Below the pieces are notes generated by a model. It searched no databases, was not told where the DNA came from, and saw only the letters and a list, made by a program, of their open reading frames with translations. DNA of 64,000 bases, from positions 22,237-86,236 of the forward strand of contig SBGR01000010.1 in the NCBI GenBank assembly GCA_006226545.1, given 5' to 3'. How positions within the stretch are numbered: the stretch's first letter is position 1; each line of letters begins with the position of its first letter. Source of the stretch: Bacteroidota bacterium (GTDB lineage: Bacteria > Bacteroidota > Bacteroidia > UBA8524). The position numbers and the translations under genes were made by a program. Below are positions 47,127-59,880 of this stretch, piece after piece.

Positions 47127-47999
47127 TTGAAACAACGTATCTTATTTATTGTCAATCCAATCTCAGGAGGAAAAGGCAAAGCCGGATTCCCTGAATTGCT
47201 TCAAAACAACCTAGATCATGCTCGGTTTGAATCTACCGTTTGGGTCTGGGAAAATGGAACCGATGCTACTGCCAGAGCAGAGTTAGCCGTTAGCGAAGGC
47301 TACGATGCTGTTGCTGCTGTTGGTGGCGATGGTACCGTGCATGCTGTTGCAAGAGCTTTAGTTCATACTTCAGTAGCATTGGTTATTATCCCCATGGGCT
47401 CAGGCAACGGACTTGCCCGCTACTTGAAGATTCCGCTGAATACGAAAAAGGCCATTCAAAGCATTGGAAACGTGGAGCCGCGCAAGATGGACATGATTTC
47501 TTTCAACGGACTTTTGTACAGCAATGTGGCCGGCGTTGGCTTTGATGCGCATATCGGTGCCTGTTTCGCTAAATCCACATCACGAGGTTTATGGGGCTAT
47601 GTGAAGTCGATAACCCAAGAATTGTTTCACTATAAAAGCGATACGTATAGCCTGAATTGGGAAAATGGAACCTGGTCGGGGAAGGCCTTTCTGATCAGCA
47701 TAGCCAATGGAGCGCAATGGGGTAATAATGCATGGATCGCGCCGAGTGCTTCGTGTTTTGACGGACTCATGCAGGTGGCAATTTTGAAACCATTCAGCTG
47801 GTATCAGGTACCCGGGATTGCGCTGGCTTTGTTTCGCAAAACGGCAGATAAAAGCAGTTACTTCAATCAGTTTTCTTGCAGTGAACTGACACTTAAAAGA
47901 GAAGATCACGTGGTGTTTCACCTCGACGGTGAGCCTTTGGATGGTGAGGAAACAGTTCAGTTGAATGTATTAGCCTCCGCGATCACGCTTTGGCATTGA
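47127..47999 (+). CDS. Diacylglycerol/YegS-family lipid kinase
   Basis: NPISG; GGDGT; PMGSGNGLA; GVGFDA; HLDGE. TTG start inferred. Confidence 0.9.
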   Translation: MKQRILFIVNPISGGKGKAGFPELLQNNLDHARFESTVWVWENGTDATARAELAVSEGYDAVAAVGGDGTVHAVARALVHTSVALVIIPMGSGNGLARYLKIPLNTKKAIQSIGNVEPRKMDMISFNGLLYSNVAGVGFDAHIGACFAKSTSRGLWGYVKSITQELFHYKSDTYSLNWENGTWSGKAFLISIANGAQWGNNAWIAPSASCFDGLMQVAILKPFSWYQVPGIALALFRKTADKSSYFNQFSCSELTLKREDHVVFHLDGEPLDGEETVQLNVLASAITLWH

Positions 48000-48852
48000 G
48001 TGCGGCTTCTTTCTTTGCCTTGTATTGAACAGCCAAAGCATTGCCAACGGCGCCGGCAATAACCAAAAACATTCCTGCTATACTGAGCCAATTGTAGGTT
48101 TCGCTAAACAAGAAGTAGCCAAAGCCTAAGGCGTAGAAGATGCCGAAATATTGAAAGATAGCTACTCCCGCCAAATTGGAATGCTGAAAGGCACGGGTCA
48201 TAAATACCTGTCCGTATTGCGTGGTAATTCCAATCCCAATCAGAATTAACCATTCGAGCATGTCTTTGGGCCATATCCAAGTGTTAATGGCCGGAATAAG
48301 TACCAATGGAAGCGTAACCAAGGGAAAATAAAAGACCACCACATTTGGATCGTCGTTTTTTCCAATCTTCCGAATCATATTGTAAGCTGCACCGGAAGCC
48401 ACCGCACTGCCAATGCCCGCCAATAAGATGAGTAGTTCAATGCGGGCATCAAATCCACGAATCACCAATACGCCGGCAAAAGCCAAGGCATAAAAGAGCC
48501 ACGTAAACCACGACATTTTCTGTTTGTTGATGAAAATAGCCAATACGGCTGTGAAGACTGGCGATAAATACTGGATGCTCACAGCAGCGGCTAGAGGCAT
48601 GTGTTTAAGCGTGAGGTAATACAAGGTCAAGCCAATAAAACCGAAGACACCCCTGAGAATCAGATGTTTTTTATCGTTTCCAAAAGGATTGAGTCCGTGT
48701 TTCTTTATTACAGCATAAGAAATCAATAAAGTAACCAGCGCTCTGAAAAAGATCAATTGGAAGACGCTGTAATTGTCGGCGTAACGCACCAAAACATTCA
48801 TCAATGCTAGAAAAAAGCCTGAAAGCAGAATGTTTGAAATCGCCTTATTCAT
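47983..48852 (-). CDS. DMT/EamA family transporter
   Basis: About 10 TM helices in two EamA halves. Confidence 0.88.
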   Translation of the reverse strand: MNKAISNILLSGFFLALMNVLVRYADNYSVFQLIFFRALVTLLISYAVIKKHGLNPFGNDKKHLILRGVFGFIGLTLYYLTLKHMPLAAAVSIQYLSPVFTAVLAIFINKQKMSWFTWLFYALAFAGVLVIRGFDARIELLILLAGIGSAVASGAAYNMIRKIGKNDDPNVVVFYFPLVTLPLVLIPAINTWIWPKDMLEWLILIGIGITTQYGQVFMTRAFQHSNLAGVAIFQYFGIFYALGFGYFLFSETYNWLSIAGMFLVIAGAVGNALAVQYKAKKEAALNAKA

Positions 48853-48877
48853 CGCGCAAATGTACAGGTTCTTGTCC

Positions 48878-48982
48878 TTAACACAATTTGCTTCGCGCTT
48901 GACACAATCGGCCCGGAGTGCGAATTCTGTTAAAGAATGTTCCGTTTTTGTTAAAGTGTCGGGTTTGGCTGTTTCAGATTTG
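48878..48982 (+). promoter_or_regulatory. Four-box operator plus degenerate -7, copy A
   Basis: TTAACAC 48878, TTGACAC 48899, TGTTAAAG 48928, TGTTAAAG 48949, CAGATTTG 48975. Confidence 0.7.
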
Positions 48983-49052
48983 TGGCATCAAATCGATGAC
49001 AGTTATGAAAACCTTATTTACTGCTTTCGCTCACGATACTAGAACCAAAAAA

Positions 49053-50621
49053 ATGAAAAGACTAATCAACCTAAGCTTAGTAGCCTTGTTAAGCACAGGC
49101 TCGCTTTCAGCACAAAAATTACCGGGTACGGCAGACAGTACCTTCAATGGAAATGGCTATGGCCTTTATCGCTTCGGCGACAAACATGCACAATTGGGCA
49201 GTGGCTATATTGACCAGAATGGCAAACTTGTAATCATTGGTGGATCCATCAATGCACAGAACAAATGGGATGTGGGCTTAACCCGCTTAAATATGAATGG
49301 AAGCGAAGACATGTCCTTCCGTAACAATGTGGGACCTTCTCATATCGACTTCAACAACGGTGAAAATGATGGTGTTTCGAATATTGCGGCGACCAAAGAT
49401 GGTGGCGCTATAGGTGTTGGAACATTTACCGGACAAAACGGTACCGATATAATGGTAGTGAAATTTGATGCTACCGGAACTGTACAGCTAAACTTTGCAA
49501 CAAACGGATACCTTACCCATGAAGTAGATCCGGGTTACGAAAAAGTGACCCACGTTTTGGAAGACAAAAATGGCAAGTTTGTGCTTTTAGGCGATTTGCC
49601 TTTTTCGCTCAAAAAAATGTTTGTAATGCGATTGAACTCCAACGGTACAATCGATAGCAGCTTCAGCGGGGACGGTATCATGTACCTCGACCCAATGGAT
49701 TTATCCAATACACCGGCGGCACTTTTGGAAAGACCTCAAGGTGGTTACTATGTGGTTTCAAGAACTTCAGGAAATGGAGCTACCTATGTAAGTGTTACTT
49801 CGGTTTCCAATAATGGTAATATCAATATCGACTTAGGCGGACCGGGTGAAGTAAGCTTGAAAGTAAATGGAAATGATGCTTCGCCAATTGATGCGGTTTA
49901 CCACAACGGTTCAATCTTCATCTGTGGCACTTATCCAAGTGCCCAAGGCAATGACGACGGCTTTTTGGCTCGTTTGGAAAAAGACGGAACATGGAATACG
50001 ACATTCGCAGGAACCGGCTTTGCTCGCATCGTTCACAACCTAGCTAACCCATACGATGAAGAAGTATTGAGTATGTGTATAGCTCCTGATAGCTCTATTT
50101 TTATCTCTACCATCGCTCATACACCAGACACGTTAACCTTGATGTTATCCCGTTACAAAACGGATGGTAATGTGGAAGGATTATTTGGTAATCAGAATGG
50201 TCGTCACCACGAGTATGCAATCGCCGACACGGTTTCTCAATTTGGCTTATATGATTTGGTATTGGATACCGGCTCTCAACGCCTTTATGTTTTGGGTAGC
50301 CAATCTAACCCAAGTCAAAGTGGATTTTTTGTATACGCTACGTATACCGGTGAATTTGAAAAAGCCTCAGGTGGCGGAACCGGCATCTACACTAAAACTG
50401 AACAAGTTCGTGTATTTCCAAACCCGGCTGGCCAATGGTTGCAGCTTGACTTGAGCGATGATCAGCCTGTTGCAGTTAAAATCTACGATGTTCAAGGTCG
50501 CGAAGTGCTGCAGTCTAATTCAGCTCGCCTGAATACCTCTGCACTACAAAACGGTATTTACTACCTCCGCGCAGAACAAGCCGGCAAATTATTCAATGCC
50601 AAAATTCAAATCCTGAACTAA
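49053..50621 (+). CDS. T9SS-secreted delta-60-repeat beta-propeller protein, paralog 1
   Basis: Signal peptide MKRLIN; repeated RLxxxGxxDxxFxxxG; VFPNP CTD. Confidence 0.85.
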   Translation: MKRLINLSLVALLSTGSLSAQKLPGTADSTFNGNGYGLYRFGDKHAQLGSGYIDQNGKLVIIGGSINAQNKWDVGLTRLNMNGSEDMSFRNNVGPSHIDFNNGENDGVSNIAATKDGGAIGVGTFTGQNGTDIMVVKFDATGTVQLNFATNGYLTHEVDPGYEKVTHVLEDKNGKFVLLGDLPFSLKKMFVMRLNSNGTIDSSFSGDGIMYLDPMDLSNTPAALLERPQGGYYVVSRTSGNGATYVSVTSVSNNGNINIDLGGPGEVSLKVNGNDASPIDAVYHNGSIFICGTYPSAQGNDDGFLARLEKDGTWNTTFAGTGFARIVHNLANPYDEEVLSMCIAPDSSIFISTIAHTPDTLTLMLSRYKTDGNVEGLFGNQNGRHHEYAIADTVSQFGLYDLVLDTGSQRLYVLGSQSNPSQSGFFVYATYTGEFEKASGGGTGIYTKTEQVRVFPNPAGQWLQLDLSDDQPVAVKIYDVQGREVLQSNSARLNTSALQNGIYYLRAEQAGKLFNAKIQILN

Positions 50622-52192
50622 TGACAGTTATAAATAAAATTGTAGCCTGCTTTGGAGTTGCCCTTTTGGGTGTGCTCCAAGTACAGGCACAGATGTACGG
50701 GGCGGCAGATAGCGCCTTTGGTACCAACGGAATGAAATCCGTTGACTTTGGAAGTAAAACTGACCAGTGCAGAAGTTCGGTGCTCGATAACCAAGGCCGT
50801 ATTTGGCTTGGCGGTTATACCGAAGGAAACGTTTCCATCAACTCCAGCTTCACTCGCTTAGACACACTGGGTGGATTGACACCCGGTTTTAAAGACAACG
50901 GAATCGGAGTTTTGGATTTTGATCCAAACGGCAATGAAGGGGTCTTCTGCATGGCCGTTGACCAAAGCAATCGCGTTTACGGTGTGTCTTTGATTGATGG
51001 AGCTGTGAGTGGAGATGTTCTCGTATTCCGCATGAACCTTGAAGGTGTTTTGGATACCAATTTTGGTAAAAACGGATACCTTACTCACGAGGTGAGTTCA
51101 GCGGATGATTTTCCTCATTCCATGCTGATTGACGAGAATAACCGTCCGGTTATTATGGGATATTCTGAATTGGCTACAGACGATTTGTTTGTGCTTCGGT
51201 TATTGGAAAATGGCGATCGCGATAGCAGTTTTTCTGCGGATGGAGTTGCCTTTTTTGATCCTTTGAACTTGGATAACTCCCCTGCAGGTATAGCGATTCG
51301 TCCTACCGCCATGGGAGGTGGTTATTATATCGGTTCTTATCAAAACCAAGGCGGTTCAAAGGTGGCCAGCATTACCAGTGTTTCAAAAAACGGTAACCTG
51401 AACATTGATTTGGGTGGACCGGGTATGGCTCATTTCAGAAAATCAGGATGGAGCACAACGTCACAAGATATAGTGATGATTGGCAGTCACCTATACATTG
51501 GTGGTACCTATAGAGGAAGTAATGACAACCAAGATGCCTTTATCTCATGCATAGGCTTGGATGGCAAATTGAATGTAGACTATGGAGATAGCGGTTCTGT
51601 CGTTATCATCAATACACCGGCAAACTTAGATCATGAGGCATTCTATAAATTGAAAGTTGCAAGTGATAGCTCAATTTATGCGGCTGGTATTGCTCAAATC
51701 AATGGTGATTACCTTATTCTTACTGCGCACATAGACCCATCAGGCAGCAAAGTAGGATTGTTTGGAAATAAGGGTGGTTTTCATATCACCGCCTTGCTAA
51801 ATGGATCTACAAGCTTTAGCGTTACCGGAATGGCCATCGACGATGTACGAGGAAGGTTATTTGTTACCGGTGCATTTGAAATCAATTCTGAAATTGATGC
51901 CTATGCCTATGCTTTTAAAACGAAGGCTACCACGCCGGCCGGTCCTAATGCCGTTCAGATGCTTGTCAAACGATTGACTGTGTATCCAAACCCAAGCAGA
52001 GGTTCGGTGAATTTACCTGAAATGGAACACGGTGAACTTGGTGTTTACGCTTCAAATGGCCAATACATGGGAATGTTTGAAATTGAAAATGGACAAGTTT
52101 CATTGCCTTCTTCACTGAGAAGTGGTGTATATTTTCTGCGTGTGACAGATGGAAATACTGTCTATACAGCTAAATTGAACCTGATTAAATAG
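50621..52192 (+). CDS. T9SS-secreted delta-60-repeat beta-propeller protein, paralog 2
   Basis: Same repeats; shares YLTHEV and NIDLGGPG with paralog 1; VYPNP CTD. Confidence 0.85.
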   Translation: MTVINKIVACFGVALLGVLQVQAQMYGAADSAFGTNGMKSVDFGSKTDQCRSSVLDNQGRIWLGGYTEGNVSINSSFTRLDTLGGLTPGFKDNGIGVLDFDPNGNEGVFCMAVDQSNRVYGVSLIDGAVSGDVLVFRMNLEGVLDTNFGKNGYLTHEVSSADDFPHSMLIDENNRPVIMGYSELATDDLFVLRLLENGDRDSSFSADGVAFFDPLNLDNSPAGIAIRPTAMGGGYYIGSYQNQGGSKVASITSVSKNGNLNIDLGGPGMAHFRKSGWSTTSQDIVMIGSHLYIGGTYRGSNDNQDAFISCIGLDGKLNVDYGDSGSVVIINTPANLDHEAFYKLKVASDSSIYAAGIAQINGDYLILTAHIDPSGSKVGLFGNKGGFHITALLNGSTSFSVTGMAIDDVRGRLFVTGAFEINSEIDAYAYAFKTKATTPAGPNAVQMLVKRLTVYPNPSRGSVNLPEMEHGELGVYASNGQYMGMFEIENGQVSLPSSLRSGVYFLRVTDGNTVYTAKLNLIK

Positions 52193-52197
52193 AATAC

Positions 52198-54786
52198 ATG
52201 TCGTTCATCGTTCTAGAATACTTAAAGAAATCCGTAAGACCCGGAGGAACGCCTACCCGCTTGAAAGAGTGGGCAGGCTTCATTCTCTGGACGCAGGCTT
52301 TAGTGCTTTATCTCGCTAATGCCATAGCAGACCCCATGTCGATTGACATGGGCCTGGTAGTGAGCGTAACGGTATTGGTTTGGCTATTCTGGTTCACGTT
52401 AAATCCGAGGCTGCAGGTTCCGATGCTGCAGCTGCTTATTTATTTCGGACTTTTTATTCAGGTGCTGGCGGTGTATCGCACAGACGCCGATATATCAGGT
52501 ACCATTTACTTTATGGTGTGGTCTTCGGTGGCATTGTTGGCTGAACGCAGGGAGTACACCAATTTTGCCGCCGGGCTGAGCACCATGATGCTGGTCTTTT
52601 TTGGATTGGCCTGGTCTGTCTACCAAGCAGACGATCATTATATTTCGGGTGCAACTTCTATCGCTACCTTTATTAGTGGGAGTGTGATTGCACTCATGAA
52701 CTTTTACCTCCTTTTGGTAGATTACCGGGGAGGCTTGCTCAAGATTGAAAACCTCCGAGAACAATTTGAGCGATTGGAGAAGATATCGGAATCGATGTCG
52801 GAAATCTTAAGTAAAAAAGAACCTGTTTCTCTTTTGCTCTGGCACGTGGCCCAGCGTTGCATGCCGCTCATGGAGCTGGATGATTTTGTGATTTACCTCT
52901 ACGATGAAAGCAGCGGAACACTCAAACAAGTAGCAGCCTATGGAATCAAATCCGAAGGTCGGGAAATACAAAACCCCTTGGAGATTAAACCGGGAGAGGG
53001 TGTAGTTGGACGCTGTTATGCTGAAGGCAGAACCATACGGGTGATGGATACCAAGGAGATAGACTTCTACTTGGTGGATGTAGAGAATCACCGTTCTGAA
53101 TTGGCGGTTCCAATTTTCAGTGGCGATAAGGTGGTGGGTGTGCTGGATTCAGAAAGCGCAGAGCCGGGTTTTTACAAGCTGCATCACATGCGGTTTTTTG
53201 AAATCATTGCTAGTTTCTGTGGCATCAAAATCACGGATGAACAGGCGCAATCGCAAATACACGAGGCAGAATTAGCCAAACAGTTGGCGGAGCAATTCAA
53301 AGAGTTGGATGAGTTAAAGAATCGCTTTATCTCCAATATCTCGCACGATTTAAAAACGCCTTTGTCTTTAATCAAAGGTCCGGCCCAGCAGATTCAAAAG
53401 ACCAGTCAGGAAGAGGAGACCCTTAAGCATGCTGCCTATATTCAAAAGAATACAGAACACCTTTTACACATGGTGGAGCAGCTTCTGCAGCTTCAGCGCT
53501 TGGATCATGGTTTGAAGCACCTTTACCCGGAACGCTTCCAACTTTGCGATATCATTCAACCATTGGTGGAGCAGTTTGAATCGCTTATTGAGCGAAAGAA
53601 AATCCACCTCGAAGTGAAGCGTTGCGAGGTCATCATGTTTACTGATCGCTTTAAGTTGCAGCAGTGCGTTCACAACCTTTTGCAAAATGCCTTTAAGTAT
53701 ACGCCTGATGGCGGCTCAGTAGGAATTAAGATTTTCCGCAAACCTGACGATGGCGATTTGTTTATTGAAGTTTGCGATAGCGGACCGGGCATTTCCCAAG
53801 AACACCACAGAAAGATTTTTGATCGCTTCTATAAAACCGATGTCAACAACCACGAGGGAACGGGTATCGGGTTATCCTTGGTGAAAGAATACATGGAAAT
53901 GATCGGTGGAACGGTAGACTATTCTGCCAGTCCTTATGGCGGCGCTTGTTTTACACTGAAGTTAGATCGTAAGCTTTTGGAAAATGTAGATACCGAAACC
54001 CAACCAACAACAGGTTTACTCGATACGGAGAATCCGGTGGTTTTGGTGGTGGAAGATCATCCTGAATTAAATGAATTTATAGCGAGCAGCTTACGTTCTC
54101 AGTACCAGGTTATTCAGGCGTTTGACGGACAAGAGGCTTGGAAGAAAGTGCAAGAAGATATGCCGGATCTGGTATTGGCCGATTTGATGTTGCCGCATAT
54201 GCAAGGGGAGGAATTGCTTCGCCGAATCAAAGAAGACGATAACCTAGCGCATATTCCGGTGGTGATTTTAAGTTCGAAAAGTAAGGTTCCGGATAAAGTG
54301 GAGCTCTACGGTTTGGGTGCGGAGAATTACCTGGTGAAGCCGTTTGATGCGGATGAACTTTTAGCCGTTATCAAAAATTGCTTCGAGCGAAGAAAACAAC
54401 TGCAGCAATTGCTTTCGGATAAAGGCATTGTGTTAAAAAAGCAGCATAACCTGAGTCCGGAAAACGAATGGATGAATGAGTTGATGCAATTGATTCGAGA
54501 GAATTTGGATAGCCCTGAACTAAGCGGTGCATTCATTGGAGAATCGTTGGGCATGGGCCGAAATCGCTTGCAAAGGGAATTAAAAGCGGCTACCGGATTA
54601 TCGCCAGCGGAGTTTATTCGTTTTGTGCGCTTGGAAGAAGCCAAAAACTTGCTTGAGAATTCTAAGCTGACGGTTTCTGAGGTGGCCTATTCTGTGGGCT
54701 TCAATAATTTGAGTTATTTCACCCGGTCTTTTAAAACACAGTACGATGTTCTTCCATCGGAAGTGAACAGAGCGGCAGAAGTTTAA
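52198..54786 (+). CDS. Hybrid two-component regulator (multi-TM, GAF, HisKA, HATPase, REC, AraC HTH)
   Basis: GEGVVG..SELAVPI..GVLD GAF; SHDLKTPL; DSGPG; LADLMLP; SEVAYSVGFNNLSYFTRSFK. Confidence 0.92.
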   Translation: MSFIVLEYLKKSVRPGGTPTRLKEWAGFILWTQALVLYLANAIADPMSIDMGLVVSVTVLVWLFWFTLNPRLQVPMLQLLIYFGLFIQVLAVYRTDADISGTIYFMVWSSVALLAERREYTNFAAGLSTMMLVFFGLAWSVYQADDHYISGATSIATFISGSVIALMNFYLLLVDYRGGLLKIENLREQFERLEKISESMSEILSKKEPVSLLLWHVAQRCMPLMELDDFVIYLYDESSGTLKQVAAYGIKSEGREIQNPLEIKPGEGVVGRCYAEGRTIRVMDTKEIDFYLVDVENHRSELAVPIFSGDKVVGVLDSESAEPGFYKLHHMRFFEIIASFCGIKITDEQAQSQIHEAELAKQLAEQFKELDELKNRFISNISHDLKTPLSLIKGPAQQIQKTSQEEETLKHAAYIQKNTEHLLHMVEQLLQLQRLDHGLKHLYPERFQLCDIIQPLVEQFESLIERKKIHLEVKRCEVIMFTDRFKLQQCVHNLLQNAFKYTPDGGSVGIKIFRKPDDGDLFIEVCDSGPGISQEHHRKIFDRFYKTDVNNHEGTGIGLSLVKEYMEMIGGTVDYSASPYGGACFTLKLDRKLLENVDTETQPTTGLLDTENPVVLVVEDHPELNEFIASSLRSQYQVIQAFDGQEAWKKVQEDMPDLVLADLMLPHMQGEELLRRIKEDDNLAHIPVVILSSKSKVPDKVELYGLGAENYLVKPFDADELLAVIKNCFERRKQLQQLLSDKGIVLKKQHNLSPENEWMNELMQLIRENLDSPELSGAFIGESLGMGRNRLQRELKAATGLSPAEFIRFVRLEEAKNLLENSKLTVSEVAYSVGFNNLSYFTRSFKTQYDVLPSEVNRAAEV

Positions 54787-54805
54787 TCGGTATTTCTAAG
54801 TTGAT

Positions 54806-54841
54806 AAAGCATCACGTGACTATTGGTCGGTGGTGCTTTTT
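54806..54841 (+). terminator. Probable terminator after the hybrid regulator
   Basis: AAAGCATCAC...GTGGTGCTTTTT. Confidence 0.6.
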
Positions 54842-54951
54842 GTGTTATTAGCGATAAGCGTAAGTTTTGTTTTGTGCTAAAGGAGTGAGGTAGCTCATGC
54901 TGTAGTTTTACCTTGGCTTTTACTTGTTTTGAGCCTGCAATAGAAGCTGCG

Positions 54952-55057
54952 TTAACACTGGATAATCAAGGTTTGACACAAATTGCACTGGGGGTGAAAT
55001 TGTGTTATTCAATGCTTCAAATGTGTTAAAGGATTGAGTAGAATGTTTTCAGTTTTG
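54952..55057 (+). promoter_or_regulatory. Four-box operator plus degenerate -7, copy B
   Basis: TTAACAC 54952, TTGACAC 54973, TGTTATT 55003, TGTTAAAG 55024, CAGTTTTG 55050. Confidence 0.7.
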
Positions 55058-55082
55058 CATCAGTTTATTTGACAGAACTACT

Positions 55083-56630
55083 ATGAAAAAAACAATCCTA
55101 TTCTCACTGGCCATGGCAGCCAGTTTGGTATCTGGGGCTCAGAAGCTGGGCACCATCGATTCAACTTTTGGTACAAACGGCCGCACTGTAAAAGACGTTA
55201 CCGGATCAGCTTACAATGAAACCATCACCGGTTCTGCTGTTGGTCCGAATGGCGACATTTATGTATGCGGCTACACCACTACCAATGTAGGAGCCGACTT
55301 ATTTGTGGCGCATTACGATGCAAACGGACAGCTTGATGCCAACTTTGGTAATAGCGGTATTTTTATTTCTGACCTGAGTTTGGGTGGCGATGACTTTGCC
55401 GGAGCGGTTTTGAGAAAGGCCAATGGTAAACTTATGGTGACTGGGTCTACAGCGGGCAATGCTTACCGTGAACCCATGCTTATTCAATTAAATAGCAATG
55501 GTTCTTTTGACGCCAGTTTCGGAACCAATGGTGTGGTGAAATACGATTTAGGTATTGCCGCTACTTCAGGGTTTATTGTAGAACGTGCCGATGGAAAAAT
55601 CGTGATGGGCGGTACTTTTAACAATGGAAGCGACCATGATTTCTATGCACTAACTGTACACCCGGATGGTAGCAGAGCCACAGGCTTTGGAAACAATGGA
55701 TTTCAGAATTACGGCTTTGCAGGAAAAGATGAGTCTTTGGTAGCCATGCTAACCGATGCTAATAACCGCGTACTCCTCGGTGGAAGTTACAAGGATCAAT
55801 TCACGGATAAAATTTCCATGATCATGATTGATTCAACCGGTAATGGGGCCTCAGGCTTTGGTTTGAATGGTTGGGTGATGGTTCAAGAAGGATCTTACTT
55901 TACCTATTTGAGCGATTTGAAATTTGATGCCTCCGGAAATATTGTTGGAGCAGGTTGGGTAAAGGGAGGCATTAACAATGACGTTTTTATCTTTAGATTA
56001 TTGCCTAGTGGTTTATTCGATAAGAACTTTGATTCTGATGGAAAGCGTCAGTTTGGGTTGAAAATTGGAAATCCGGCCAACGAATACTTGTATTCAATAA
56101 ACATTCAAAACGACGGTAAAATCGTGGCGTATGGTTATTATTTAGAGAACAGTATTAAATACGGTTTGGTTATTCGATTCAAGTCGGATGGATCATCTGA
56201 TCAGGGTTTTGGTGGGCCTTACGGTTACAATTTGATTCCGCATGCCGATTTCAATAATACCCTTTCGGGAAATATCATTGTTCGTCCTTCCAATGAACGT
56301 ATAATTATGGTAGGTCGCACAAAGGTGAATTCAGATTACGATATGATGTTGGTGGCCATACACGGCACTGAGCCATTCCCGGCAAGCGTTAAAAGCAATG
56401 TGAATCAATCGCTAAAGCTATATCCGAATCCGGCACATGAACAATTTGCTGTAGAGGCAGATTGGACAGAAGGTACCTTGGTTTTAATGGATTTGAACGG
56501 CAAGGTGATCTCCAGCTGGAATGAGAAATTGCAGACGTATTCCATCCCTGCAAACTTGAAACAAGGGGTTTATGTAGTCAGACTGCAAACAGCGACTGCA
56601 ACGTTCACTTCGAAAATGATTATCAACTAA
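55083..56630 (+). CDS. T9SS-secreted delta-60-repeat beta-propeller protein, paralog 3
   Basis: Signal peptide; GxxDxxFGxxG repeats; QNDGKIV; LYPNP CTD. Confidence 0.88.
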   Translation: MKKTILFSLAMAASLVSGAQKLGTIDSTFGTNGRTVKDVTGSAYNETITGSAVGPNGDIYVCGYTTTNVGADLFVAHYDANGQLDANFGNSGIFISDLSLGGDDFAGAVLRKANGKLMVTGSTAGNAYREPMLIQLNSNGSFDASFGTNGVVKYDLGIAATSGFIVERADGKIVMGGTFNNGSDHDFYALTVHPDGSRATGFGNNGFQNYGFAGKDESLVAMLTDANNRVLLGGSYKDQFTDKISMIMIDSTGNGASGFGLNGWVMVQEGSYFTYLSDLKFDASGNIVGAGWVKGGINNDVFIFRLLPSGLFDKNFDSDGKRQFGLKIGNPANEYLYSINIQNDGKIVAYGYYLENSIKYGLVIRFKSDGSSDQGFGGPYGYNLIPHADFNNTLSGNIIVRPSNERIIMVGRTKVNSDYDMMLVAIHGTEPFPASVKSNVNQSLKLYPNPAHEQFAVEADWTEGTLVLMDLNGKVISSWNEKLQTYSIPANLKQGVYVVRLQTATATFTSKMIIN

Positions 56631-56656
56631 AAATATAGTACATAGAAATAAAATTT

Positions 56657-56686
56657 AAGCCTGTCCTCAATAGGGGGCAGGCTTTT
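56657..56686 (+). terminator. Intrinsic terminator
   Basis: AAGCCTGTCCTC-AATA-GGGGGCAGGCTTTT. Confidence 0.8.
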
Positions 56687-56832
56687 CTATTGGACCAATG
56701 TTAAGGGATGCCGAGTGGTAACTTTTGTTCGACGAATTTCTCAGTAGGTGGTAAGTAATTAGTTAACAATTCCATTAATATTGTGGTAGACGTCTAGCCT
56801 CAAATTGGACTATTCGTGAAAACCAAACTTTT

Positions 56833-59800
56833 ATGGAGATGAAGATTACAAACTTTAAACGCTCATTCGGGCGCGGCTTTATGCGAATTGCATTAGCCTT
56901 CACCATGGTAATGCTGATGGGCCTCACTGCATGGGCTCAACCAGATTATTACAGTTACAACACAGGAACCAGTTACAATGCCTTTCCGCTGAACAGTACC
57001 ACAAACAAGGTACAGTGGATTTACGATGCAGGTCAGTTCCACTCCAATGGACCTACTGGTAATCCTGCTTTTTCTGGGCTTATTACCCATGTCTATTTCA
57101 GACTCGGAACCACAACTAACGGTTCTAGCGTTTACAGCAATTTCACTATCAAGCTAGGCCAAAACGTTGGTACGCAAAGTACTTGGACTAGCACCACCTG
57201 GGCTACGGGCTTAACTACTGTGTTTTCACAGGCTAGTTATTCCATGACAGGAGCTTCTCCTACCAGCTGGTACATGGTTCAATTGCAAACCCCGTTTGTT
57301 TACGATCCTAGCCTTTCACTGGTAATGGAAATTTCAGTAACCGGCGGAACAGGAAACCAGGTAGCGCAGTATACTGCTAACGGAAGCCGTCGTATTTGGG
57401 GTACTTCTGCAGGTGCGTCTGGGTCAAGCTACGGAACTGGTCAGGTTGACTTTGGTTTCGATATCGTTCCTTTGAACGTAGACGTTACATCAATTACTTT
57501 CCCAAGTGATATTTGCCAGTTTGAAACCACACCGGTTGAGGTTACGGTTGAAAACACCGATATCGTTGCTCGTGGAGGTTTCTTATTGGAGTACAAAATT
57601 AATGGTGTCAGCCAATCAGTTGAGACCTATACTCAACAAATACCAGCCGGGCAAAGTGCCAATTTTATCTTTAACGTACCAACGGCAAACCTCACTACAG
57701 GTCCGTTTACCATTTCAGCTAATGTGGTAGGTAAAGCACAGTTTGTAGATCAAGCCTATAACGTAAATGGAGCGCCTGATGGTTCAATAGTAAGTCAAGG
57801 TTCCACATTCCAAGGTGCATTCAATTCTGGAACTGCCTTAGATCCGGATATTGTGGCTTACGGTGATCAGATTTCTTATACGATTAGTGCCCCTCCAGGT
57901 TATGTAAACAGTAATTACAATTCCACGTGGGCATTTGATTTCTACGAATTTGTTACAGCAAATGGTAGTACTGCAGGTGCTGCACACGTTCAGAATAACC
58001 CAAGCGGTAACAACGATGCAACCGTTACCTTTAATCCGGTTCAAGGTCTTTCTGACTCTACCTTTAAAATCCGCTATGCTTTAAGAGAAACAGTTCATAA
58101 CTGTGTTGCTCCTGTAGTAGAACGCGAAATTTTTGTTGCACCTCGCCCAACAGCCGGTTACACTTCAGGTACGGCTTGTGAGAACGGTCAAATGAAGTTT
58201 AAAAACAATAGCGCTGTTACCTCTGGTTTTATCACACATAAATGGTATTTCGGTGATGGTGACTCTTCTACCTTAATTAACCCTTCTCACGTTTATGCAA
58301 ATGCGGGTACCTACAATACTCAATTGGTAGTAACCACCAACTACGGTTATACTGCAAACTATACCCTTCAAGTAGATGTGTTTGAAAATCCAGATGCAGC
58401 ATTTGATGCATTAAACGTTTGCGAAGGCAATGCAAATACCTTTACGGATGCTTCTATGATCCCGGGAGGAACTCCTGTGTACGAGTGGAACTTCGGCGAT
58501 GGCTCTACTTCATCTGCTTCAAGCCCTAGCCACCAGTACGCTACTCCGGGTAACTATACCGTAACCTTGAAAGTAACCACCAACGGTTGTGTTGATCAAA
58601 TGAGCAAAGAAGTTACCTACGCGCCAATTCCGGTAGCCGACTTCAACTTCAACCAAGTTGATTGCAATAACGACGAAGTTACATTCAGCAATGCTTCTAC
58701 CTTAGCATTTGGTAACATGGGTTATTCTTGGGATTTTGGCGACGGTACAAACGCGAATTCCAATAACCCTAAACATACCTACAGCTCTTTCGGTAACATC
58801 AACGTTACCTTGGTAGCAACTAGCAATTTTGGTTGTACTCACCAAGTGGTAAAAGCGGTTAGCTTGAAAGAAGCTCCAATGGCAGATTTCACCGTAGCTA
58901 ACTTGTGTAACAAAGACAACGTTTCATTTACCAATACAGGTTCTGAGCCTTCAGGTTTCACTACCGCTTACGAGTGGAGCTTTAACGACGGAAGCACTTC
59001 AAATGCTAAAGACTATTCACGCAGCTTTAATGCCATCGGTACTTACACCGTTACTTTGAAAGCACAGTCTTCAAATGGTTGTGTTGACGAGAAAATGGTT
59101 AACATCAGCGTAGATGAAAAACCAGTTGCTGGTTTCGTTGCTGCCAATACATGTGAAGGTAGCGATGTACAATTCAATTCTGCTGCTTACGGTAACAACG
59201 GTAACTTTACTCATAGCTGGGATTTTGGTTCTAGCATGACTAGCAACTTGATTAACCCAACTCAAAGTTTAGCAACCGGTACTCATGCTGTAACTTTAAC
59301 GGTTGAGTCTCCAAGCGGATGTAAATCTACATTGACTAAAAACGTTGAAGTATTTGCAAAACCAGTTATCAGCAATTTGGTATTCACTACCTTAAATATT
59401 GGTGATGGTAACATGGGCTTGACTGCCGATATCACTCCAGCGAACATTCCATACACCATCTTATGGGGTGATGGTAATAAAACCTTCGGTACTGTAAACG
59501 GTCCGGTTGCTGAGCAACACCAATACACACTTGATGGTGTTTGGACTGCTGATATTCGTTTGAACAACAATGGCTGTTTAACTCAAACTACCGTTGATGC
59601 AAATGTGAAACGTACCGGAATGGAGCATGTTAATACGACTGCTTTGACTGCTTACCCTAACCCAGCTCGTGATGCCTTCAAGGTAGACTTGAGCAAAGTT
59701 GAAGGTTCAGTTAAACAAATCGAAGTATTGAACGCCAATGGCCAAGTGATGAATGTAAACATCGAGATGTTAGAAACATCTGCTGATGTAAACATGAATC

Positions 59801-59880
59801 AAGTAGCTGCAGGTCTTTACCTGGTACGTGTTCAGACTGAAAACGGAATCTATACCACACGAGTAAACATTACTCGATAG
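56833..59880 (+). CDS. T9SS-secreted multi-PKD-domain surface protein
   Basis: Repeated WxFGDG and HxYxxxGxYxVxL PKD motifs; AYPNP CTD. Confidence 0.88.
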   Translation: MEMKITNFKRSFGRGFMRIALAFTMVMLMGLTAWAQPDYYSYNTGTSYNAFPLNSTTNKVQWIYDAGQFHSNGPTGNPAFSGLITHVYFRLGTTTNGSSVYSNFTIKLGQNVGTQSTWTSTTWATGLTTVFSQASYSMTGASPTSWYMVQLQTPFVYDPSLSLVMEISVTGGTGNQVAQYTANGSRRIWGTSAGASGSSYGTGQVDFGFDIVPLNVDVTSITFPSDICQFETTPVEVTVENTDIVARGGFLLEYKINGVSQSVETYTQQIPAGQSANFIFNVPTANLTTGPFTISANVVGKAQFVDQAYNVNGAPDGSIVSQGSTFQGAFNSGTALDPDIVAYGDQISYTISAPPGYVNSNYNSTWAFDFYEFVTANGSTAGAAHVQNNPSGNNDATVTFNPVQGLSDSTFKIRYALRETVHNCVAPVVEREIFVAPRPTAGYTSGTACENGQMKFKNNSAVTSGFITHKWYFGDGDSSTLINPSHVYANAGTYNTQLVVTTNYGYTANYTLQVDVFENPDAAFDALNVCEGNANTFTDASMIPGGTPVYEWNFGDGSTSSASSPSHQYATPGNYTVTLKVTTNGCVDQMSKEVTYAPIPVADFNFNQVDCNNDEVTFSNASTLAFGNMGYSWDFGDGTNANSNNPKHTYSSFGNINVTLVATSNFGCTHQVVKAVSLKEAPMADFTVANLCNKDNVSFTNTGSEPSGFTTAYEWSFNDGSTSNAKDYSRSFNAIGTYTVTLKAQSSNGCVDEKMVNISVDEKPVAGFVAANTCEGSDVQFNSAAYGNNGNFTHSWDFGSSMTSNLINPTQSLATGTHAVTLTVESPSGCKSTLTKNVEVFAKPVISNLVFTTLNIGDGNMGLTADITPANIPYTILWGDGNKTFGTVNGPVAEQHQYTLDGVWTADIRLNNNGCLTQTTVDANVKRTGMEHVNTTALTAYPNPARDAFKVDLSKVEGSVKQIEVLNANGQVMNVNIEMLETSADVNMNQVAAGLYLVRVQTENGIYTTRVNITR

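Follow-up and report, generated by a model that had tools for sequence, protein, structure and literature searches.

Two copies of a four-box operator flanking a hybrid regulator gene suggest a local regulon of secreted propeller genes in a Bacteroidota bacterium

Two intergenic regions of a Bacteroidota bacterium, one on each side of a string of genes that ends in a hybrid regulator gene, share the same layout of four short boxes in front of genes for proteins secreted by the type IX secretion system (T9SS). The question raised by this locus is whether the boxes form an operator and, if so, which protein reads them and to what effect. The window, by which we mean the whole 64,000-nucleotide stretch that was analysed (GenBank assembly GCA_006226545.1, contig SBGR01000010.1, positions 22,237 to 86,236 of the forward strand; all coordinates below are window positions), belongs to a genome, here G000, of 3,450,271 bases in 87 contigs, with 44% G+C and a completeness of 94%. 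Copy A of the element lies between a divergent EamA transporter gene and propeller gene 1, which with propeller gene 2 and the regulator gene makes up unit A; copy B lies between the hairpin that follows the regulator gene and propeller gene 3, which is unit B. The reading we favour, with a probability of about 0.5, is that both elements serve as cognate operators for the regulator whose gene lies between them, and that this regulator would activate the three T9SS propeller genes and itself.

All ten motifs of the two copies were found exactly at the positions and spacings given in the original prediction, which was made from the letters of the window. In copy A, TTAACAC (48878) is followed by TTGACAC (48899), by TGTTAAAG at 48928 and again at 48949, and by CAGATTTG at 48975, at spacings of +21/+29/+21/+26. 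Copy B contains TTAACAC (54952), TTGACAC (54973), TGTTATT (55003), TGTTAAAG (55024) and CAGTTTTG (55050), spaced +21/+30/+21/+26. We aligned 32 boxes from eight full operators of five lineages, namely operators A and B of G000, of the metagenome contig L029 and of genome G007, plus operator A of genomes G003 and G001. In this alignment each box is a 17-bp asymmetric, bipartite half-site, (T)TTRACAC-AAtyT-GCaC. The TGTTAAAG boxes represent this half-site in reverse complement, so the operator is oriented → → ← ←, in agreement with the proposed layout of two direct repeats facing two inverted ones at a 21-bp pitch. Three positions are invariant among the 32 half-sites (T-1, A+1 and C+2), A+3 is found in 31 and C+13 in 28, and the pattern does not change in the 24 half-sites that are left when the close relative L029 is removed. 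Information peaks at -2 to +4 (TTRACAC) and at +10 to +13 (GC.C), giving two conserved blocks about 11 bp apart within one half-site. An asymmetric half-site of about 17-20 bp whose two conserved blocks are one helical turn apart has the sequence pattern of operators of the AraC/XylS family.

The spacing between boxes is also conserved in the eight operators. Box 2 follows box 1 at 20-22 bp and box 4 follows box 3 at 21 bp in all eight, while boxes 2 and 3 are 30-31 bp apart from anchor to anchor, with their centres at 20-21 bp and only 3-4 bp between the half-sites; the whole element measures 79-80 bp. As the centres of the half-sites are 20-22 bp apart, the four share one face of the helix. 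The arrangement expected of operators of hybrid two-component systems (HTCS), with half-sites in tandem at about 21 bp beside the putatively regulated genes, is thus present in 8/8 operators. Predicted Bacteroides HTCS motifs are described as sites of 12-16 bp in direct repeats spaced 21 bp on average and were interpreted as bound by a dimer on a single face of the DNA (Ravcheev et al. 2013, PMC3878776). For BT4124, the one footprinted HTCS, DNase I footprinting at bt4114/bt4108 is reported to show two sites, each made up of two half-sites, at a distance of about 21-22 bp (J Biol Chem 2026, PMC13292587). The premise of ~21-bp HTCS direct repeats from which the element was first proposed therefore holds in these two accounts.

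Such pairs of sites are particular to this locus. The single heptamer TTRACAC occurs 422 times in the whole assembly, counting both strands, whereas TTRACAC-N14-TTRACAC, the genome-wide scan suggested with the original prediction, occurs twice, at copies A and B. A matrix derived from 16 half-sites of the other genus alone places half-sites of G000 first, second and fourth when every position of the genome is scored, and tandem pairs at 20-22 bp that score above 18 bits number three with this matrix and four with the full matrix, all of them at the two operators. Because such sites occur solely at these two places in the genome, the regulon would be a local one. In operator A, half-site 1 (CTTAACACAATTTGCTT, 48877..48893, fourth genome-wide with the other-genus matrix) and half-site 2 (CTTGACACAATCGGCCC, 48898..48914, from the alignment), both on the plus strand and 21 bp apart, are the best tandem pair of the genome in the matrix scan. 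They are followed on the minus strand, in reverse orientation, by half-site 3 (TTTAACAGAATTCGCAC on that strand, 48918..48934, second genome-wide with the same matrix) and half-site 4 (48939..48955), whose anchor is 23 nt upstream of the -7 box and whose TGTTAA core stands where a -33 element would be expected. In operator B, half-site 1 (GTTAACACTGGATAATC, 54951..54967, from the alignment) and half-site 2 (TTTGACACAAATTGCAC, 54972..54988, the top single site of the genome with all three matrices) are on the plus strand, and half-sites 3 (54993..55009, alignment and matrix scan) and 4 (55014..55030, alignment and tandem-pair scan), the latter over the -33 zone, are reversed on the minus strand.

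The likeness of the two copies might be explained as a relic of the duplication of a promoter and its gene, with no present function. The genes behind the copies are indeed paralogues, and upstream of box 1, too, a few bases can be aligned. Nevertheless, the similarity is concentrated in the boxes: between copies A and B of G000, 25/28 positions are identical in the TTRACAC cores and 42/68 in the four 17-bp boxes, against 17/59, a chance level, in the flanks (20 upstream positions, the 19 that separate box 4 from the -7 box, and 20 downstream ones; one-sided Fisher p = 1.8e-4 for boxes versus flanks). The uniform similarity along the spacers that had been named as the sign of a duplication relic was therefore not found. 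The propeller paralogues behind A and B are 22% identical, whereas the orthologous target proteins of G000 and G007 are 42% (B-B) and 48% (A-A) identical, so the duplication predates the divergence of the two genera; those orthologous loci have kept the same cores. These comparisons support the view that the boxes have been retained since the duplication and that the two sites are probably a specific, selected operator; a functionless relic is very improbable.

An arrangement → → ← ← is necessarily a dyad, and might act through nucleic-acid structure instead, as a hairpin or attenuator in RNA or, alternatively, as inverted repeats in an invertible promoter. In the minimum-energy folds box 3 does pair, with box 1 in copy A and with box 2 in copy B, but these folds are no better than those of shuffled sequences (z = -0.49 and -1.60), and the operator region has no Rfam match, the only one being a weak Thr_leader at 56647-56786 (25.3 against a 55-bit threshold). 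The boxes lie upstream of the -7 boxes, no same-strand transcription enters copy A, and what is conserved is the sequence (the invariant TTRACA) and not the pairing. As for inversion, the -7 box is outside the repeats, and no recombinase gene adjoins the locus in the open reading frame and family tables. We give a structural origin of the dyad hardly any credence.

The gene between the two operators (52198..54786, plus strand) encodes a protein of 862 residues. By hydropathy, six closely spaced hydrophobic segments span residues about 26-173, and Pfam finds GAF (214-343), HisKA (374-438, 2.1e-14), HATPase_c (483-591, 2.1e-26), a receiver domain (Response_reg, 615-725, 9.4e-27) and an AraC-type helix-turn-helix, HTH_18 (782-858, 1.6e-21). 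The phosphorelay residues are intact, with H383 in the HisKA motif SHDLKTPL and D662 in the receiver both invariant in five orthologues, in which nearly the whole helix-turn-helix region is invariant as well. Judged from its domains, the regulator is a two-component system in one polypeptide, with six transmembrane (TM) segments followed by GAF-HisKA-HATPase-REC-AraC, which is the architecture of an HTCS; the earlier label of a GAF-AraC hybrid named two domains that are present and understated the rest. Classical Bacteroides HTCSs have a large periplasmic sensor domain between two TM helices. Here no Pfam domain is found before residue 212, and the N-terminal hydrophobic segments are joined by short loops that leave no periplasmic sensor, which places the protein, by its predicted topology, outside the classical glycan-sensing subgroup. 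The 6-TM module itself (gene positions 52198-52720, residues 1-175) has no Pfam family match, nor was a counterpart found in the 36 genomes without a full-length orthologue among 40 others sampled, where matches start at about residue 330-370.

Full-length orthologues with 63-64% identity are encoded by G001, G003, G007 and G009, all of one other genus, and L029 carries a regulator that is 90% identical. Among 15 genomes of the order the regulator is present in five, these four and G000. In a one-genome-per-species collection, peptide patterns of the N-terminus taken from the five-protein alignment match only those four metagenome-assembled genomes, which argues that the regulator is rare; a scan of the same collection with a single protein gave no match. 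The metagenome scan also yielded L033, whose operator is that of G001 over the printed stretch, L030 and L031, whose flanks end before the operator, and the unrelated L032. Wherever the flank is available (G003, G001, G007 and L029), operator A is found upstream of the first propeller gene. The G009 contig starts inside box 4, and the distance from box 4 to the -7 box, counted manually, is still 23 nt. Operator B is present in G007 and L029 as well.

A three-box pattern was then run on all 15 genomes of the order, with the reversed pattern as a control. It gave seven intergenic matches adjacent to the regulator (two in G000, two in G007, two overlapping ones on opposite strands in G003 and one in G001), and the reversed pattern gave none. 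Hence 4/5 genomes with the regulator carry the pattern next to it, the fifth being G009 with its contig end. Among the 10 genomes without the regulator, nine have no match and one, G002, has a match in a coding region, so that intergenic matches number zero; the G002 match lies within a LytTR response-regulator gene, on the antisense strand, and was discounted as a chance occurrence. Two of the genomes without a match, G005 and G011, belong to the genus of G001, G003, G007 and G009 and lack the regulator, although G011 is only 80% complete.

A true operator could also be read by another transcription factor encoded elsewhere, the adjacent regulator being a co-regulated passenger. The genome does encode many other AraC-type and receiver-AraC proteins, besides other regulators, and one of them could be the binder. 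Yet the genome has no other copy of the motif pair, the pair accompanies the regulator gene in four of five genomes (the fifth being contig-cut) and no intergenic region of the ten genomes that lack it, and asymmetric half-sites in tandem at 21 bp fit an AraC-type dimer. We consider a different binder unlikely. Beyond this abundance of candidate binders, further findings weigh against the reading we favour. Operator B was not found downstream of the regulator gene in G001, G003 and G009, so a regulon with two operators is not universal, and the eight operators come from few, related lineages, with G000/L029 and G001/L033 as near-duplicates, so that the counts overstate their independence. Still, the core of the reading, a local operator with box-specific conservation that would belong to the neighbouring regulator, is well supported by the comparative evidence. 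We infer binding by this regulator solely from the co-occurrence, and the stoichiometry, sign and transcript starts considered below are likewise deduced. The original claim that the regulator activates both units is partly supported: the operators travel with its gene in other genomes, but the naming of the binder and the choice of activation over repression are less firm.

The promoters bear on that choice. The -7 box of unit A is CAGATTTG (48975..48982) and that of unit B CAGTTTTG (55050..55057), both on the plus strand. The flavobacterial sigma-A -7 box is reported to span -12 to -5 (PMC9723704), and from this placement transcripts are predicted to start near 48987 and 55062. The box 4 anchor is 23 nt from the -7 box (nAnnTTTG) in 7/8 operators and 24 nt in operator A of G007; for operator B of L029 the count uses the aligned AAGTTTTG, at 23 nt, and not the nearer AAAGTTTG picked by the regular expression. 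Six of the eight -7 boxes read CAnnTTTG, those of units A and B included, and two read AAnnTTTG. Relative to the predicted start, the centres of the half-sites are near -40, -61, -81 and -102 and the box 4 core is at about -38 to -33, the place of the -33 element if the -7 box is at -12 to -5. Neither unit A nor unit B has TTTG at -33, where the zone is occupied by the box 4 core. The earlier statement that the last box covers -33 of a weakened -7 box (CAnnTTTG) thus holds, with a fixed distance between the two. The consensus TAnnTTTG was not found on the plus strand of 48800-55150 (6.3 kb, three genes), and there is no obvious internal sigma-A promoter for the regulator gene. A scan with a sigma-70 model gave 14 promoter-like sites against a shuffle mean of 18.1, and this model is uninformative for the phylum. 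In most operators a short CATCA(A/G)-like motif occurs 0-3 nt past the -7 box (TTTG-tgg-CATCAAAT at 48983-48995 and TTTG-CATCAGTTT at 55058-55066); it may indicate where transcription starts or be one more conserved feature of these promoters.

Upstream of copy A, on the minus strand, the divergent EamA/DMT (drug/metabolite transporter) gene (47983..48852, 289 residues, Pfam EamA E = 2e-28) has its own consensus -7 box, TACATTTG (48857..48864), 4 nt from the start codon; neither strand of the intergenic region holds another TAnnTTTG. The EamA gene is syntenic in G003, G001, G007 and L029, and the 4-nt distance is found in 5/5 loci (G000, L029, G003/L021, G001/L022 and G007/L023). With the -7 box so close, the -12 to -5 rule predicts a leaderless transcript that starts at the A of the ATG. 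The anchor of box 1 is 15-16 nt from the EamA -7 box in G000, L029 and G003, where box 1 would overlap the EamA -33 zone; in G007 the two are separated by 28 nt, and in G001 by 23 or 41 nt, according to which candidate -7 box is chosen. The suggestion that copy A might also affect the DMT gene is consequently compatible with the spacing at three loci and weak at the other two. Copy B has no leftward CAAAnnTA and yet keeps boxes 1 and 2, which indicates that the distal pair is part of the operator proper. That the two divergent promoters are controlled symmetrically was considered as a conserved feature and rejected on these two grounds, the variable gap between box 1 and the EamA promoter and the lack of a leftward -7 box in copy B. 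Control of EamA would at best be a lineage-specific side effect.

For the propeller units, we regard activation as more likely than repression. Activation is favoured because the plus-strand promoters are weak, with CAnnTTTG and no consensus box over the 6.3 kb, next to the perfect TACATTTG of EamA, and promoters without TTTG at -33 have the look of activator-dependent ones. Most AraC-family proteins, like most studied HTCSs, are activators. The geometry, with box 4 over the upstream promoter zone at a fixed distance from the -7 box, would be compatible with class II (promoter-overlapping) activation. The same protein on the same operators could instead repress, its dimers over -48 to -32 and upstream occluding RNA polymerase, which would imply negative autoregulation of unit A and a unit B that stays repressed until a signal releases it. 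Box 4 covers the -33 zone and could block the polymerase equally well. Moreover, an active variant of BT4124 that occupies four half-sites at bt4114 is reported to reduce transcript levels of the genes behind its sites, and the authors write that it appears to be a repressor (PMC13292587). The latch between alpha3 and beta4 of the receiver may point the same way. It reads AHIP (residues 684-687) here, where most HTCSs have S/CHIP, with alanine in the first position in about 6%, and HTCSs with another latch are suggested to bind DNA unphosphorylated and possibly to repress (PMC11253607). Taking both sides together, repression is a serious, though less likely, alternative.

Under activation by the neighbouring regulator, the operator could work as follows. 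AraC-family domains are described as reading two adjacent major grooves in a fixed orientation (PMC2377442); one AraC-type domain would likewise read one half-site, its two helix-turn-helix units placed on the blocks about 11 bp apart. A kinase-linked dimer would occupy the tandem pair 1-2 and a second dimer the oppositely oriented pair 4-3, both approaching their mirror-image pairs from the membrane side, and half-sites on one face of the helix fit a protein that can reach the DNA only from that side. A signal sensed in the membrane or by the GAF domain would lead to phosphotransfer from H383 to D662 and free the DNA-binding domain, and the proximal subunit would then contact RNA polymerase and assist it at the two weak CAnnTTTG promoters that lack a -33 element. 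Activation of unit A would include the regulator itself and hence produce positive feedback. Propeller gene 2 (50621..52192) starts within the stop of gene 1, a gap of -1 nt, the regulator gene begins 5 nt past gene 2, and the only terminator-like hairpin seen within unit A is after the regulator gene, for which reasons activation would be self-amplifying. Autoregulation through its own operon, as first proposed, is therefore plausible in G000. The gap between propeller gene and regulator is 5-9 nt at the other loci as well, except in G003 (L021 10709-10857, minus strand), where a 150-nt gap contains a perfect inverted repeat, CAAGGTCCTGAAG ... CTTCAGGACCTTG. In this genome the hairpin may uncouple the regulator, as a terminator or attenuator, and it weakens the case for autoregulation.

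A more ambitious version can be formulated. In it, → → ← ← would be the footprint of a membrane-tethered tetramer of two kinase-linked dimers related by a two-fold axis, the protein would represent a distinct 6TM-GAF branch of HTCSs tuned to a membrane or cytoplasmic cue rather than to a glycan, and the operator would be a self-amplifying switch for T9SS propellers that in G000, L029 and G003 also acts on the -33 zone of the leaderless EamA promoter. If true, one symmetric operator would make a two-way switch. Taken as a whole this version is doubtful, and we offer it tentatively.

The genes of the two units are similar in kind. Propeller gene 1 (49005..50621, plus strand) encodes a T9SS-secreted delta-60-repeat beta-propeller (DUF5122, delta_60_rpt and Por_Secre_tail in Pfam/NCBIfam) and has two candidate starts, 49005 and 49053, of which the latter goes with the signal peptide. 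Propeller gene 2, also on the plus strand and T9SS-secreted by the same searches, is a paralogue with 30% identity to gene 1. The first six codons after the G000 promoter (MKTLFT) match the start of an extra first gene of L029, which has three propeller genes before the regulator where G000 has two (contig positions about 300-1835), and are followed by the second Met at 49053; it looks as if G000 lost, or L029 gained, one propeller gene, the original start codon having been left behind in G000. The hairpin 3' of the regulator gene, followed by a U run (54806..54839, plus strand; -17.1 kcal/mol, z = -3.1), was detected by folding, because its inner loop caused the simple terminator scan to skip it. 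Propeller gene 3 (55083..56630, plus strand) is again a T9SS-secreted delta-60-repeat protein (Pfam/NCBIfam) and is followed by a strong terminator of 12 pairs on the same strand (56657-56684, terminator scan). Past unit B and this terminator, positions 56833-59880 code for a protein of 1015 residues that contains five PKD domains as well as a T9SS sorting tail; the genome-wide tandem-pair matrix scan found no operator-like pair in front of this gene. G001 (1012 aa) and L029 (at least 934 aa, open-ended) have downstream open reading frames of comparable size. A narrow literature search on the delta-60 repeat and DUF5122 turned up repeat-protein modelling and nothing on their regulation.

The locus provides a predicted operator at base level, with a half-site matrix, spacing rules and predicted starts, for an HTCS of an uncultured Bacteroidota lineage. 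It would extend the 21-bp tandem half-site rule, inferred for glycan sensors of gut Bacteroides, to a 6TM plus GAF sensor and to T9SS cargo as targets, and as a compact natural case of four phased half-sites in mirror layout it could help to show how HTCS dimers anchored in the membrane are placed on their DNA. Systems of this kind are already known and no long-standing question is opened; what sets this case apart is the sensor module, the targets and the abutting mirror pairs. As in Bacteroides HTCSs, kinase, receiver and AraC-type domain are joined in one polypeptide, and the operators consist of tandem half-sites about 21 bp apart in a local regulon that adjoins the regulator gene. Unlike them, the protein has about six TM segments and a cytoplasmic GAF domain in place of a periplasmic sensor, a latch that departs from the usual S/CHIP, and, as presumed targets, T9SS delta-60-repeat propellers rather than polysaccharide utilization loci. 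At bt4114 the operator of BT4124 is reported as four half-sites in two sites with about 21-22 bp spacing (PMC13292587). In the operators described here the two tandem pairs are oriented towards each other and adjoin, only 3-4 bp separating half-site 2 from half-site 3.

Two soluble regulators of the AraC family offer further parallels. At araBAD I1-I2, AraC uses direct-repeat half-sites two helical turns apart, of which the proximal one overlaps the upstream promoter element, as box 4 does here; it differs in having two activating half-sites, in looping to the distant O2 and in being soluble with no phosphorelay. At melAB the promoter-proximal MelR site overlaps the -35 element and the two pairs of sites are oppositely oriented. 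MelR is a soluble, ligand-binding protein that acts at sigma-70 promoters of the -35/-10 type, whereas the promoters here are of the Bacteroidota -33/-7 type. At the E. coli melAB operator, too, four molecules are described on two pairs of oriented 18-bp sites in a region shared with a divergent regulator gene, with the difference that a CRP dimer sits between the two MelR site pairs (PMC2377442), while the pairs flanking the regulator gene of this Bacteroidota bacterium stand directly against each other.

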